From the IMG/VR virus record IMGVR_UViG_2663763159_000003, positions 1-32,675 of that record: 32,675 nucleotides of DNA, one strand, 5' to 3'. Source of the stretch: a virus. Its lineage: Duplodnaviria; Heunggongvirae; Uroviricota; Caudoviricetes. The position numbers and the translations under genes are program-made. The stretch's first letter is position 1. Each line of letters opens with the position of its first letter. The notes beneath the pieces were generated by a model that searched no databases, was not told the origin of the DNA, and worked only from the letters and a program-made list of their open reading frames with translations. Positions 1 to 31,217 of this stretch are shown here, piece by piece.

Positions 1-552
1 CACCTACGAACCAAAACAGCACAGCAGCACATCGCCCGGCTGCGCCGCTGACAACGGCACCTGATACAGCCCTGTGGCCTCCAGATTATCCAGATAGAGA
101 TTCTGACCGTTACGCCACCAGTCATCCTCGCGATGAAAATCCGGCATCTCAATCCCCGCCAGATGGTAAGCATCCCGGAACAGCGTGTAACAGTCCGTCA
201 CCCCGTGCTCAAAGCGCCGCCCGGAAAGATGCGGCACACAGCGGAATTTATGAATCTCACCCCGGCAGACCAGCCACCACGGCAAATCACTATGCACCTG
301 CAGCCGCCGGTCGGCCTCACTCAGCCAGGGCAGACCACCGGGGTGGCTGTGGACCAGCGCCACAATCTCACCCTGCATCTCTGCCCGCAGCCAGTCCTCC
401 GGCGACATCCGGAAATACTCCTCCGGCTCACCGGAGATATTCACGCAGGGAAAATATCTTTCCCCTTCCGGCGTTCTCACCACGAAGCCGCACGACTCCG
501 CTGGCGCACATCGCCGGGCGTGCGCCAGAATCGCTGATTCTGTCTCTGTCAT
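1..552 (-). CDS. K: Tail tip assembly protein K (JAB/MPN plus NlpC/P60-like), C-terminus truncated by window edge
   Basis: ORF 4..552 with ATG at 552 and no stop before the window edge; HSHP-type motif and synteny downstream of L. Confidence 0.85.
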
Positions 553-557
553 GGGAT

Positions 558-1256
558 TTACTGCGAAAGTTTGTTAATGGAAAGGTAGCCGCCAAAATTG
601 CCGACGTTATTGCGGAACTTGCAACCACTCAGGCATTTGCTGCACTTATCCTTCGTGATATCGGACGTTGGCTGGTCATATTCATCCGCGACAGCCGGGC
701 CATCATAACCGCACTCATCGCCGCGGTAGATCCAGGTGCAGGTGTTGGCCAGCATGATGCGCCCCGGAAAAACGGCACCATCCGTTTCCGTCGGTGTGGA
801 CAATACAAAGGAGGCACTGACCGCGCTCAGTTCGCTGCACTGCTCGATGCGCCAGCGGCTGATCACCTCCTGCTCCGGATCGGCGTCACTGTTTCCGTTG
901 ACGAAGTTCACCGCATCCAGAAAACGGGCGTAAACCTTACGCCTGACCACCGTTCCGCCGACCAGACTCTGCAGGTCTTCCGCCATCCCGGTGACCATGC
1001 CGTGCAGGTTAGAGACTTTCAGCGTTGGTCTTGCACTGGCTCCTTTGCCGTTCATCTCAAAGCCGCTTCCCTGAATAGGGTACGCCTGATACTGTCGCCC
1101 CTGCCAGGTGACCGACTCACCTTTTTCGTTCTGCTCATTACAGAAAAAATAACGTTCTCCGCCGACCTCTGTCAGATCGACTTCCCAGAGCACGATCAGC
1201 GCGGATTGCTCCGTTTTAGTGCACTCATTGAGTGTTTCCTGCTGTATATCCTGCAT
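558..1256 (-). CDS. L: Minor tail protein L
   Basis: 232 aa, near-identical to λ L as recalled (MQDI.QETLNEC..., C-terminal CSKCLSGCKFRNNVGNFGG); synteny between M and K. Confidence 0.9.
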   Translation of the reverse strand: MQDIQQETLNECTKTEQSALIVLWEVDLTEVGGERYFFCNEQNEKGESVTWQGRQYQAYPIQGSGFEMNGKGASARPTLKVSNLHGMVTGMAEDLQSLVGGTVVRRKVYARFLDAVNFVNGNSDADPEQEVISRWRIEQCSELSAVSASFVLSTPTETDGAVFPGRIMLANTCTWIYRGDECGYDGPAVADEYDQPTSDITKDKCSKCLSGCKFRNNVGNFGGYLSINKLSQ

Positions 1257-1612
1257 CAGTGAGTGACCTCTTCAAAGGTACAGTTAAAATCGGTATACAT
1301 GGCATTATCCGAAATGCTCCACTCCCTGCAGACAACCCGGACAGTCCTGTTGTGTTTTGGCGGACGCCACAAAAAAGCACGAATCCCGGCATGACGGGAT
1401 AAAAAACTGTCCAGCGCGGCACGGGAATATTCATCTGTGACACGAAATACCGGTTTAAACGTTTTCAGATCCGCATTCAGACCACCAGCCCGTCGCTGTT
1501 CATATCCGTCACCAAACTTTACCGTAATAACTGATGGCTTTCGTGTCGTCTCCATCCCCTCACGGGGGATCCAGTTAAAAACTTCAGGCTCAGGCACTGT
1601 ACAATCCTCCAT
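1256..1612 (-). CDS. M: Minor tail protein M
   Basis: FGDGY..AGLNA..FLW motifs shared with λ M; start ambiguous (ATG at 1612 overlapping the end of H, or ATG at 1555). Confidence 0.75.
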   Translation of the reverse strand: MEDCTVPEPEVFNWIPREGMETTRKPSVITVKFGDGYEQRRAGGLNADLKTFKPVFRVTDEYSRAALDSFLSRHAGIRAFLWRPPKHNRTVRVVCREWSISDNAMYTDFNCTFEEVTH

Positions 1613-29836: not shown

Positions 29837-29862
29837 TTGCGTGTAATTGCGGAGACTTTGCG

Positions 29863-30081
29863 ATGTACTTGACACTTCAGGAGTGGAACGCACGCCAGCG
29901 ACGCCCAAGAAGCCTTGAAACAGTTCGTCGATGGGTACGCGAGTGCAGGATATTCCCTCCTCCGGTTAAGGATGGAAGAGAGTATCTGTTCCACGAATCA
30001 GCGGTAAAGGTTGACTTAAATCGACCAGTAACAGGTAGCCTTTTGAAGAGGATCAGAAATGGGAAGAAGGCGAAGTCATGA
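29863..30081 (+). CDS. xis: Excisionase
   Basis: 72 aa, matches λ Xis as recalled. Confidence 0.95.
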   Translation: MYLTLQEWNARQRRPRSLETVRRWVRECRIFPPPVKDGREYLFHESAVKVDLNRPVTGSLLKRIRNGKKAKS

Positions 30082-31129
30082 GCGCCGGGATTTACCCCCT
30101 AACCTTTATATAAGAAACAATGGATATTACTGCTACAGGGACCCAAGGACGGGTAAAGAGTTTGGATTAGGCAGAGACAGGCGAATCGCAATCACTGAAG
30201 CTATACAGGCCAACATTGAGTTATTTTCAGGACACAAACACAAGCCTCTGACAGCGAGAATCAACAGTGATAATTCCGTTACGTTACATTCATGGCTTGA
30301 TCGCTACGAAAAAATCCTGGCCAGCAGAGGAATCAAGCAGAAGACACTCATAAATTACATGAGCAAAATTAAAGCAATAAGGAGGGGTCTGCCTGATGCT
30401 CCACTTGAAGACATCACCACAAAAGAAATTGCGGCAATGCTCAATGGATACATAGACGAGGGCAAGGCGGCGTCAGCCAAGTTAATCAGATCAACACTGA
30501 GCGATGCATTCCGAGAGGCAATAGCTGAAGGCCATATAACAACAAACCCTGTCGCTGCCACTCGCGCAGCAAAATCAGAGGTAAGGAGATCAAGACTTAC
30601 GGCTGACGAATACCTGAAAATTTATCAAGCAGCAGAATCATTACCATGTTGGCTCAGACTTGCAATGGAACTGGCTGTTGTTACCGGGCAACGAGTTGGT
30701 GATTTATGCGAAATGAAGTGGTCTGATATCGTAGATGGATATCTTTATGTCGAGCAAAGCAAAACAGGCGTAAAAATTGCCATCCCAACAGTATTGCATG
30801 TTGATGCTCTCGGAATATCAATGAAGGAAACACTTGATAAATGCAAAGAGATTCTTGGCGGAGAAACCATAATTGCATCTACTCGTCGCGAACCGCTTTC
30901 ATCCGGCACAGTATCAAGGTATTTTATGCGCGCACGAAAAGCATCAGGTCTTTCCTTCGAAGGGGATCCGCCTACCTTTCACGAGTTGCGCAGTTTGTCT
31001 GCAAGACTCTATGAGAAGCAGATAAGCGATAAGTTTGCTCAACATCTTCTCGGGCATAAGTCGGACACCATGGCATCACAGTATCGTGATGACAGAGGCA
31101 GGGAGTGGGACAAAATTGAAATCAAATAA
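30059..31129 (+). CDS. int: Integrase (tyrosine recombinase)
   Basis: 356 aa, matches λ Int as recalled; start overlaps xis end. Confidence 0.95.
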   Translation: MGRRRSHERRDLPPNLYIRNNGYYCYRDPRTGKEFGLGRDRRIAITEAIQANIELFSGHKHKPLTARINSDNSVTLHSWLDRYEKILASRGIKQKTLINYMSKIKAIRRGLPDAPLEDITTKEIAAMLNGYIDEGKAASAKLIRSTLSDAFREAIAEGHITTNPVAATRAAKSEVRRSRLTADEYLKIYQAAESLPCWLRLAMELAVVTGQRVGDLCEMKWSDIVDGYLYVEQSKTGVKIAIPTVLHVDALGISMKETLDKCKEILGGETIIASTRREPLSSGTVSRYFMRARKASGLSFEGDPPTFHELRSLSARLYEKQISDKFAQHLLGHKSDTMASQYRDDRGREWDKIEIK

Positions 31130-31217
31130 TGATTTTATTTTGACTGATAGTGACCTGTTCGTTGCAACAAATTGATAAGCAATGCTTTTTTATAATGCCA
31201 ACTTAGTATAAAAAAGC
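31130..31217. other. attL: λ P' arm and 15-bp core (reverse complement of GCTTTTTTATACTAA at 31203..31217) joined to host B arm
   Basis: Sequence gattttattttgactgatagtgacctgttcgttgcaacaaattgataagcaatgcttttttataatgccaacttagtataaaaaagc matches the λ attP P' arm as recalled, then diverges into host sequence. Confidence 0.85.

Follow-up and report, generated by a model that had tools for sequence, protein, structure and literature searches.

Here, we analysed a window of 32,675 nucleotides (virus record IMGVR_UViG_2663763159_000003), in which positions 1-31217 form the 31 kb on the int side of a 42.2-kb prophage inserted at the lambda attB site of E. coli, between ybhB (bio side) and ybhC (gal side). 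The right end of the prophage falls exactly on the lambda att core (31203-31217), beside ybhC, and in strain 405 this core, GCTTTTTTATACTAA, is present at both prophage ends, 42.2 kb apart. The rest of the window is bacterial:

31218-32675, plus strand: E. coli chromosome with ybhC (31264-32547), as annotated by PGAP in strain 405, where this region is identical

In both our homology table and the PGAP table for the identical region, the genes follow the canonical lambdoid order without duplication, i.e., att-int-xis-(ea/rec)-N-cI-cro-cII-replication-nin-Q-lysis-packaging-head-tail. Blocks and breakpoints were defined by local BLAST against lambda, 689R5, HK97, HK140, PDP110P1, PhiR12_1, 683R2, 933W, phage 21, PhiR49_2 and VT2-Sakai. 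The breakpoints lie at about 16.4, 20.75, 22.25, 23.38, 24.09, 24.59 and 29.58 kb. The 'donor' names used below are sequence-type labels and not literal parents, and the nearest relative depends on which phages are sequenced. The G+C content of the blocks varies between 0.41 and 0.51.

The late-gene block, from position 1 to about 16400, is 98.9% identical to vB_EcoS-689R5 (the match spans 1-16564), and 1-13411 shows 97.7% DNA identity to PhiR49_2. E. coli phages of the 689R5, PhiR49_2, Evi and phi467 type have this block in common, in the order S-DUF1327-R-Rz-HNH-terminase-head-tail, while the early regions of 689R5 (with Rac/Qin-like genes) and PhiR49_2 are unrelated to that of the window. 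PhiR49_2 joins the same late block to a wholly different early region, with replication genes of the DnaC/helicase kind and a Q, integrase and tRNAs of its own. The tail genes of the block are as follows.

4-552, minus strand: K (tail tip), cut by the window start, TAG at 4-6; 93% aa identity to phage 21, 83% to lambda over 170 aligned residues
558-1256, minus strand: L (tail tip); 92% aa identity to lambda, 93% to phage 21
1256-1612, minus strand: M-like; 40% aa identity to lambda M over 92% of the length, 39% to HK97 over 64%
1590-4817, minus strand: tape measure; Pfam Phage_HK97_TLTM 1e-93, 55% identity to HK97 gp16 over the full length
4864-5537, minus strand: T/G chaperones, HK97-like
5552-6256, minus strand: Ig-domain major tail protein, HK97-like
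6317-6661, minus strand: tail completion (tail terminator), HK97-like
6658-7104, minus strand: gp10-family, HK97-like
7104-7442, minus strand: head closure, HK97-like

The first-pass annotation had assigned a lambda tail to this prophage. This is correct for the tip, as the L/K DNA (4-1256) is 92.2% identical to lambda 13409-14676 (92.6% to phage 21), and the lambda-type tip continues outside the window, where in strain 405 lambda 14062-17970 matches at 92.7% through J. However, the shaft and neck genes at 1256-7442 (gene names from PGAP) share 52-80% aa identity with HK97 gp7-gp16. The tape measure had been called lambda H, to which it shows only 27% identity over 25% of its length (the C-terminal quarter), and the call is therefore withdrawn in favour of the full-length HK97 match. 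No lambda matches for the V, G, T, U and Z equivalents were found in the aa comparison, and the shaft resembles lambda only at M and at that C-terminal quarter. Since the tape measure, M, G/T, major tail protein and terminator are all HK97-like, 'lambda tail' is true of the tail tip only.

The head and packaging genes follow.

7451-7768, minus strand: connector
7845-9062, minus strand: major capsid; Phage_capsid PF05065 4e-70, 24% aa identity to HK97 over 31% of the length
9077-9676, minus strand: S78 prohead protease; Peptidase_S78 PF04586 2e-40
9669-10895, minus strand: portal; Phage_portal PF04860 1e-99, 28% aa identity to HK97
between portal and TerL, minus strand: 53-aa ORF
11043-12800, minus strand: TerL; Pfam TerL, 28% aa identity to HK97
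12800-13282, minus strand: TerS, P27 family; Pfam Terminase_4
13430-13780, minus strand: HNH; PF01844 2e-16, 37% aa identity to HK97 gp74
13781-14915, no strand: variable insert between lysis and packaging genes, absent from PhiR49_2
13919-14458, plus strand: YfbU-family gene; Pfam YfbU 3e-11
14464-14730, minus strand: 88-aa ORF

HK97 shares the architecture of this module: an HNH gene next to the terminase (here 147 bp upstream of TerS), the order portal-protease-capsid without a separate scaffold gene, and a capsid with an N-terminal extension, seen here as the part left over before the PF05065 match, which starts at residue 126. The proposed HK97-type head thus stands at the family level but not as close kinship. 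TerL, portal and capsid are only 24-28% identical to those of HK97, the prohead protease and TerS gave no match to HK97 in the aa comparison, TerS is of another family and the early genes differ. HK97 K169 aligns to Ala184 in a weak local alignment of 24% identity, and the N356 region is left without alignment. The close relatives of the module (7451-13780) are 689R5, at 99-100% aa identity, and PhiR49_2, at 97.7% DNA identity. PhiR49_2 homology stops at 13411/13412 and resumes at 14916; between these points the HNH stretch 13412-13780 is the sole match, at 84%. The insert at 13781-14915 is present in 689R5, and its ORFs match phrog_6084 and phrog_5415, both function-unknown families.

14886-16517, minus strand: lysis cassette overall
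14886-15353, minus strand: Rz; 77% aa identity to lambda
14948-15133, minus strand: Rz1, embedded in Rz, lipobox present
15350-15883, minus strand: endolysin; 91.5% aa identity to 933W R, 34% to R21
15947-16297, minus strand: DUF1327/YdfR, an extra gene separating S and R
16302-16517, minus strand: S21-type holin/antiholin; PF04971 'P21 holin S' 1.4e-35 over the full length, 98.6% aa identity to S21
16399-16433, no strand: crossover interval inside the holin gene, where the 689R5-type late block gives way to phage 21 sequence, from the mismatch pattern

The lysis genes had been described as phage-21-type, with a pinholin and a SAR endolysin. This is apt for the holin, a class II holin of the S21 family which starts with MKSM and keeps the second ATG, so that the dual start (antiholin S71/holin S68) is conserved. 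The endolysin carries the triad E35-X8-D44-X5-T50, in agreement with the lysozyme criterion E-X8-D/C-X5-T, and matches PDB 3HDE with E = 4e-16 (PMC9239132 for the criterion and for the use of 933W R as a SAR endolysin). We took as a SAR domain one to three N-terminal basic residues and, after them, a stretch of about 20 residues that is weakly hydrophobic and rich in Gly/Ala/Ser/Thr; here K4 and R6 precede G8-P24, G/A/S/T account for 9/19, and the mean Kyte-Doolittle value is 1.3-1.9. An orthologue of R21 was ruled out by the identities listed above. From its sequence the endolysin would thus work like R21, yet it belongs to the 933W/Qin type, and DUF1327 lies between S and R.

The exchange between the late block and the next one can be placed inside the holin gene: mismatches to phage 21 cluster at 16305-16398, those to 689R5 begin at 16434, and both phages are identical to the window in 16399-16433. 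Next comes the phage 21 block (16399-20775), with the holin 5' part, two tRNAs, pR'/QBE, Q21, ninG/F/E/B, ren, P and O in colinear arrangement.

16636-16711, minus strand: tRNA-Thr (ARAGORN and Rfam), one mismatch to phage 21
16717-16791, minus strand: tRNA-Asn (ARAGORN and Rfam)
16792-16839, minus strand: terminator, 0 mismatches to phage 21
16834-16840, minus strand: sigma-dependent pause element, 0 mismatches to phage 21
16841, minus strand: pR' TSS (phage 21 annotation)
16848-16853, minus strand: pR' -10 (phage 21 annotation)
16853-16868, minus strand: Q21 binding element (QBE), bipartite ATTGAGCA/AATGAGCA, 0 mismatches
16871-16876, minus strand: pR' -35 (phage 21 annotation)
16883-17371, minus strand: Q21; 162/162 residues as in PDB 6JNX chain P, PDB 6P18 E = 6e-109
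17362-17418, minus strand: ninH fragment (phage 21 colinearity)
17415-18805, minus strand: ninG, ninF, ninE, ninB (phage 21 colinearity)
between ninB and ren, minus strand: orf26 (phage 21 colinearity)
18879-19169, minus strand: ren (phage 21 colinearity)
19166-19867, minus strand: P (phage 21 colinearity)
19864-20763, minus strand: O, with four ori iterons at 20329-20415

Only 6 mismatches to phage 21 were found over 16715-20775 (4.06 kb), with none over 16715-19499, and the late-control elements annotated in the phage 21 record OL657228 map to 16792-16876 with 0 mismatches. Phage 21 positions 35257-40082 are colinear with 16301-21124 of the window, including orf26, the ninH fragment, paQ, pR', QBE and S21. 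Lambda DNA is 97.4-97.6% identical in the Q21-to-O region (16883-20763), but it is not colinear with it because lambda carries ninC/D/H/I. The earlier separation of a lambda replication/nin module from the start of a phage-21 lysis module is therefore replaced by one continuous phage 21 block, and separate losses of ninC/D/H/I from a lambda backbone were rejected, as their absence is the native layout of phage 21. The Q gene, 100% identical to Q21, had been overlooked before. The phage 21 ral and L/K tail-tip genes are also 92-98% identical to those of the window. In contrast, the lambda-type head and tail shaft, R21, imm21, Red exo/bet/gam and icd-targeting integrase of phage 21 are all absent from it, and BLAST found no DNA similarity to phage 21 over 1277-14886. 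The crossover between the phage 21 block and the immunity region falls in 20715-20775.

20796-21092, minus strand: cII; 94.9% aa identity to 933W, DNA about 94%
21184-21223, no strand: nutR-like site
21231-21458, minus strand: cro; 98.7% aa identity to 933W
21475-21549, no strand: OR1-OR3; phi24B OR3 and OR2 exact, OR1 with one mismatch
21538-22245, plus strand: cI; 99.6% aa identity to 933W
22251-23397, plus strand: two-gene cassette in the rexAB position
22323-22351, plus strand: promoter-like site of the cassette
22369-22689, plus strand: 106-aa ORF
22689-23372, plus strand: 227-aa coiled-coil protein; weak CCDC90/DUF1640 match, phrog_14825
23378-23397, plus strand: conserved tIMM-like terminator
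23613-23627, plus strand: OL-like site; phi24B OL1/OL2 with two mismatches
23678-23719, plus strand: nutL, VT2-Sakai type
23823-24095, plus strand: N; 97.8% aa identity to VT2-Sakai N, Pfam N_peptide 2e-32

Judged by these matches, cI, cro and OR are of the 933W/phi24B type, and N with nutL/nutR is of the VT2-Sakai type. The best matches to lambda operators in the window carry 3-5 mismatches and lie at irrelevant positions, in agreement with the first-pass annotation, which had denied lambda immunity to cI, cro, cII, N and the operators. The leftward early control region (23378-24095) is 86% identical in DNA to Sakai-type Stx phages; the OL search returned a single site, at 23613-23627, in a region with 76% identity to phi24B and 86% to Sakai. 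No close relative was found for the cII segment and the OL region. One small ORF upstream of N is frameshifted in the PGAP annotation. The Stx phages 933W and phi24B are alike in cI, cro, cII and OR, 933W also in the endolysin, and VT2-Sakai in N and the nut sites, whereas the Q, holin, head, tail and integrase of Stx phages are all unlike those of the window, which is without stx genes and has the 106+227-aa cassette in place of stk downstream of cI. A search of 50,697 phage records gave no match to the DNA of this cassette, and there were no PADLOC or PDB matches. In each of 7 other E. coli contexts the two genes occur together and lie between cI and N, and the Rec modules next to the cI-cassette-N unit are of four different kinds, its replication genes of two types.

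24093-24588, plus strand: ral block with ral at 24224-24424; 98.2% identity to phage 21, 97.6% to lambda, Ral 98.5% aa
24589-27660, plus strand: HK140-type recombination module; HK140 97.7% DNA over 24129-27357, 683R2 99.0% over 24818-27660
24651-24821, plus strand: cIII-like
between cIII-like and RecT, plus strand: 102-aa ORF
25211-26122, plus strand: RecT, phrog_148
26106-26588, plus strand: Gp157/MuGam-like, phrog_253 (Mu Gam-like)
after the MuGam-like gene, to 27660, plus strand: D5-like fragment, DUF5405, DUF2737, DUF7446
27661-29579, plus strand: small-patch 'ea' region; matches of a few hundred bp each to 933W (90-94%), 683R2, PhiR12_1 and HK140
27614-28108, plus strand: Ea22-like, followed by several short ORFs
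28974-29555, plus strand: DUF551
29580-31217, plus strand: lambda/HK97 integration module; 98.9% identity to lambda 27724-29361, 98.5% DNA to HK97
29656-29823, plus strand: lambdap35 homologue
29863-30081, plus strand: xis
30059-31129, plus strand: int; Int 98.9% aa identity to lambda, 99.4% to HK97
core 31203-31217, plus strand: P' arm and 15-bp att core

The HK140 Rec module consists of SAP-4 and MuGam, without nuclease and without SSB (PMC12315714). HK140 and mEpX1 share the cIII-like gene, the 102-aa ORF, RecT, the MuGam-like gene and the following ORFs at 96-100% aa, while HK140 is otherwise unrelated in its immunity, integrase, head and lysis genes. The int/xis/att genes of HK97 are of the same type as here. 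Comparison with lambda and the PGAP table also confirmed that ninC/D/H/I, sieB, rexAB and exo/bet/gam are absent: the rexAB position holds the two-gene cassette and the Red genes are replaced by HK140-type RecT/MuGam. The gene order is that of lambda, with O, P, ren, ninB/E/F/G and ral at 93-100% aa identity (92-100% with L, xis and int included, as their earlier designation as lambda or near-lambda implied), and the integration module, too, is lambda-type as had been stated. The immunity, N, Q, holin, endolysin, head, tail shaft, tape measure, Red genes and rexAB position differ from lambda, whose DNA aligns to only about 7.6 kb of 31.2 kb (about 24% of the prophage part).

We consider it very likely that the element is one 42.2-kb mosaic lambdoid prophage, with a lambda/HK97-type Int at the lambda attB, which arose as lambdoid phages circulating together recombined. 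Stretches 0.5-16 kb long share 96-100% identity with phage 21, 933W, HK140, lambda and 689R5, and the nearest relative differs from block to block, which bears out the earlier proposal of a mosaic prophage with foreign immunity and replaced accessory genes. Uniform identity to a single known phage was not seen: at most 53% of the window is covered by any one phage record, and the best one, vB_EcoS-689R5, matches 1-16564 only. It is an ordinary but clear case of textbook lambdoid mosaicism.

Could the prophage instead be a decayed, non-inducible remnant, whose mosaic look comes partly from deletions? We regard this as unlikely. The TAG at 4-6 would cost K its last 65/247 residues, but it is missing from three sister genomes, where K is intact, and, lying at the extreme end of the window, it could be an error in the sequence. 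Pseudogenes occur in the side-tail-fibre region, outside the window, although lambda itself is without functional side tail fibres. Together with the frameshifted ORF upstream of N these features speak for decay, whereas every essential gene seen in the window has its full length and shares 96-100% identity with its counterpart in isolated phages (PhiR49_2, phage 21, 933W, HK140), and the layout of phage 21 accounts for the genes that are missing in comparison with lambda.

Even less probable is a lambda backbone (tail, replication, integration) to which an HK97 head, the phage 21 lysis genes and foreign immunity were added separately and from which ninC/D/H/I were lost in separate events; this version is already contradicted by the data. 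L/K, ninE-G, ninB-O, ral and xis-int-att do match lambda DNA at 92-99%. However, the aligned share is small, and neither H nor M nor the tail shaft is of the lambda type. Every gene from O to S is nearer to phage 21, with which this region is colinear down to the ninC/D gap, the ninH fragment and the tRNAs, and xis-int-att is similarly close to HK97. That the region is an artefact of assembly, or a pair of prophages lying side by side or one within the other, is hardly credible despite the abrupt changes of nearest relative and G+C between blocks, as each functional module is present in one copy in canonical order, a single att-core pair flanks the 42.2 kb, and 7700-32675 is 100% identical in five clonal, complete and independently assembled genomes from Norway, the USA and China, so that the mosaic is not an assembly chimera. 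The combination is found in only 5/5426 complete E. coli genomes, and the next-best genome after those five covers 65%.

For the mosaic prophage, homologous and illegitimate recombination among co-circulating lambdoid phages would have assembled the blocks, and adjacent blocks would for this reason have different nearest relatives. The first would have brought the holin 3' part, DUF1327, the 933W-type SAR endolysin, Rz/Rz1, HNH, terminase, HK97-family head, HK97-like shaft and lambda-like tip; the second, phage 21 O to the holin 5' part via Q21, pR'/QBE and the tRNAs; blocks 3-5, the 933W/phi24B cI-cro-OR-cII, the uncharacterised two-gene cassette and the VT2-Sakai-type N with nut; and blocks 6-9, ral, HK140-type RecT/MuGam, the patchwork ea region and lambda/HK97 xis-int-att. 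Going by the homologues of these blocks, the 933W-type repressor would keep the prophage silent, N of the Sakai type may antiterminate at the matching nut sites and O/P may replicate from the four-iteron lambda-type ori. Q21 would load at the QBE on pR', giving read-through into the tRNAs and late genes; the HNH-assisted terminase would fill the HK97-type head with DNA, and the S21-type pinholin is expected to depolarise the membrane, upon which the SAR endolysin would be released.

Finally, the module junctions had been proposed to coincide with accessory loci. This applies to the cassette adjacent to cI and to the YfbU insert. It does not apply to the tRNA pair, a native component of phage 21 situated within the phage 21 block, or to the main late/early crossover, located in the coding sequence of the holin.

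The lambda att core GCTTTTTTATACTAA was found at 31203-31217, immediately before ybhC, and its end coincides exactly with the prophage end at 31217 proposed by the first-pass annotation. The adjoining chromosomal gene is:

31264-32547, ybhC, chromosomal gene next to the att core

In E. coli strain 405, which carries a near-identical prophage, a second copy of the core adjoins ybhB, 42.2 kb away. Since the two cores are separated by this distance, the window can be described as the int-proximal part (31.2 kb) of a single prophage inserted at the classical lambda attB, followed by 1.46 kb of chromosome. 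The whole window differs from strain 405 at three bases (positions 5, 7 and 804), and the gene list was taken from the PGAP annotation of the matching region in that strain. Gene order is standard lambdoid, spread over two strands. In a megablast search of 5,426 complete E. coli genomes, five chromosomes matched window 7700-32675 at 100% identity, namely strain 50579417 (Norway), strain 405 (Houston) and three WCHEC strains (Chengdu), and the next best genome covers only 65%. On the attR side of the strain 405 prophage (L010 4474-9683, outside the window), there is a sensor diguanylate cyclase gene immediately inside attR, and the side-tail-fibre region contains several pseudogene fragments, one of them a terminase fragment.

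The proposal that the prophage is a mosaic was borne out, as no phage record covers the window; the reading of one known phage across the window was rejected on the same ground. Phage vB_EcoS-689R5 matches the left half at 99.1% identity, while on the right the best record is PDP110P1, with 57% of that half covered. By local BLAST, the 689R5 match is confined to window 1-16564, and lambda matches nine pieces of approximately 7.6 kb in total. Adjacent stretches differ in the extreme: phage 21 shows zero mismatches across 16715-19499 (2.8 kb) and no detectable DNA similarity over 1277-14886. Mismatch maps placed the crossover between the late block (tail, head and lysis genes) and the phage 21 block at 16399-16433, within the holin gene, and that between phage 21-type and 933W-type sequence at 20715-20775, at the start of O. 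These may serve as a worked example, with two crossovers resolved to intervals of 35 and 61 bp and the first of them in the holin coding sequence. Junctions fall mostly at gene boundaries. Their supposed coincidence with accessory loci holds in part: some flank the cassette downstream of cI and the YfbU gene (both described below), but the tRNA pair is internal to the phage 21 block and the largest junction lies within the holin coding sequence. The element is a single lambdoid prophage in which at least nine blocks are joined, and a relative of 92-100% identity is already known for each; it is a new combination of known modules and not a new kind of element. Two further readings, an assembly chimera and tandem prophages, were both rejected. 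Overall, the first-pass observation was partly confirmed and its interpretation partly supported. Since the comparison of HK97 and HK022, pervasive mosaicism of lambdoid phages has been textbook knowledge, and with a 92-100% identical public relative for every block, the mosaic is of little general interest.

The late block also occurs in phage PhiR49_2 at 97.7% identity, beside an entirely different early region, and because of this pairing it behaves as an exchangeable module. Between Rz and the HNH gene, at 13781-14915, lies a variable insert that 689R5 shares and PhiR49_2 lacks. It includes:

13919-14458, opposite strand, YfbU-family gene
14464-14730, 88-aa ORF

The tail had been assigned to lambda, and this stands for L and K, with 92% DNA identity to lambda as well as to phage 21 (L 92% and 93%, K 83% and 93% at the amino-acid level, respectively); in strain 405 the lambda similarity runs on through I and most of J (92.7%). 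The rest of the tail, however, is HK97-like. At 1075 aa, the tape measure protein is longer than that of lambda (853 aa); it carries the Pfam domain Phage_HK97_TLTM and aligns along its entire length with HK97 gp16 at 55% identity, whereas its resemblance to lambda H is limited to the last quarter (27%). The G/T chaperones and the Ig-domain major tail, tail completion, gp10-family and head-closure proteins are 52-80% identical to HK97, with no lambda match for any of them, and M is about 40% identical to lambda and HK97 alike. Just ahead of the stop codon of tail chaperone G, at 5166-5200 on the minus strand, there is a stretch of A's and then G (AAAAAAAAG), where the G/T -1 frameshift would be expected; in the PGAP annotation T is a gene of its own. 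The head genes, with Phage_capsid, Peptidase_S78 and Phage_portal families and an HNH gene adjoining that of a P27-family small terminase subunit, are HK97-type by family as had been suggested, but only 24-28% identical to HK97, and the capsid alignment to HK97 is too weak to place the cross-link residues. At the very edge of the window, a TAG at 4-6 (minus strand) truncates K at residue 182 of 247, where strains 405, 50579417 and WCHEC4533, 689R5 and lambda have a sense codon (CACCTACG in the window, CACCGATG in these). This stop codon, 4 bases from the edge, may represent a real tail-assembly defect or an edge error.

The lysis genes had been read as a phage-21-type pinholin and SAR endolysin. 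The holin is of the S21 type (PF04971 at 1.4e-35, dual start conserved) and differs from S21, as identified from the phage 21 genome record, by one amino acid. Its gene is chimeric at 16399-16433, with a phage 21-type 5' part and a 689R5-type 3' part, and nearly all differences in it are synonymous. The endolysin, on the other hand, is 34% identical to R21 versus 91.5% to 933W R. It has the E-X8-D-X5-T triad and an N-terminal Ala/Gly/Ser-rich stretch after K4 and R6; such a triad and stretch were used as SAR endolysin criteria in PMC9239132, where 933W R served as a SAR endolysin. The sequences therefore point to a pinholin probably acting with a SAR endolysin, but the term phage-21-type is true only of the holin. 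Rz with its embedded Rz1 is 75-77% identical to the lambda and phage 21 counterparts. The holin and endolysin genes are separated, as in 689R5 and PhiR49_2, by:

15947-16297, minus strand, DUF1327/YdfR gene

The chief revision of the first-pass map concerns the phage 21 block. Window 16301-21124 is colinear with positions 35257-40082 of phage 21 (OL657228). The genes in this stretch are cII (partly), O with four iterons, P, ren, orf26, ninB, ninE, ninF, ninG, a ninH fragment, Q21 and S21; the control and RNA elements are paQ, pR', the bipartite QBE, the sigma-dependent pause element, a terminator, tRNA-Asn and tRNA-Thr. Between 16715 and 20775 there are 6 mismatches to phage 21, and all annotated control elements are identical. 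Lambda, in contrast, is 97.4-97.6% identical over the block without being colinear with it. The Q protein, not mentioned in the first-pass annotation, is identical at 162/162 residues to the Q21 chains of PDB 6JNX/6P18. The absence of ninC/D/H/I was correctly noticed, but it does not represent a loss: because the block is colinear and near-identical with phage 21 and not lambda, it is phage 21's own layout. Phage 21 dates from the late 1950s, when it was isolated from sewage in Paris, and its early-right and late-control block is circulating nearly unchanged in current urinary E. coli on three continents. Recent clinical E. coli isolates from Norway, the USA and China carry the zero-mismatch stretch 16715-19499.

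The immunity region is, as the first reading held, without lambda operators. Instead, OR3 and OR2 of phi24B are present exactly and OR1 with one mismatch. The cI protein shares 99.6% identity with the repressor found in phi24B, 933W, P27 and many Stx2a phages, and cro and cII are 98.7% and 94.9% identical to 933W. N is 97.8% identical to that of VT2-Sakai and both nut sites are of the Sakai type; since cI, cro and OR are of the 933W/phi24B type, even the immunity region is composite. The presence of 933W/phi24B-type immunity and a 933W-type endolysin in a non-Stx prophage matters for immunity- or gene-based typing of Stx phages. A small frameshifted ORF at 23662-23845 (plus strand; PGAP, strain 405) overlaps nutL and the start of N.

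The only uncharacterised part of the prophage is a cassette downstream of cI, in the position occupied by rexAB in lambda and stk in 933W:

22323-23397, plus strand, two-gene cassette (a promoter-like site and two ORFs) between cI and a tIMM-like terminator

The cassette has its own promoter-like site, and the terminator downstream is conserved. The 106-aa ORF was assigned to no family, and the 227-aa protein shows a weak CCDC90/DUF1640 coiled-coil match and is hydrophobic at its C-terminus. No DNA match to the cassette was found in 50,697 phage records, a PDB sequence search with both proteins gave no match, and PADLOC, run on ten accessory proteins, returned nothing usable (sole match at E = 0.009). 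In tblastn against phages, the sole match of the 227-aa protein was 33% to an ORF in the immunity region of HK542/HK244. In E. coli prophages the pair is common, always paired and always between cI and N, accompanied by cI of two immunity types and by four different Rec modules. From position and context, we tentatively suggest that the gene pair at 22369-23372 might encode a new system, expressed from the prophage, for superinfection exclusion or abortive infection, a reading we consider possible and rather doubtful.

In the left arm, ral is lambda/phage 21-like (98%). In place of the Red genes stands a module with 96-100% identity to its HK140 counterpart, which encodes a cIII-like protein, RecT and a MuGam-like protein and no nuclease; the matching Rec-module type is catalogued in PMC12315714. 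The ea region is a patchwork of few-hundred-bp pieces, and from 29580 through xis, int and att the sequence is 98.9% identical to lambda and 98.5% to HK97. In an Rfam scan of the whole window at the gathering threshold, the two tRNAs were the only matches; oop, sib and thermometer families were absent. Promoter and terminator scans stayed at background (13 found versus 15.9 expected and 16 versus 12.3, respectively), and such sites were used only if they matched the position of a homologous feature in lambda or phage 21, or flanked the cassette. Chi octamers number five in 32.7 kb (at 1482, 11336, 13648, 15021 and 15458), an uninformative count, all in the late block, with about one expected by chance; this is modest beside the Chi-rich, Rec-less lambdoid phages described in PMC12315714.
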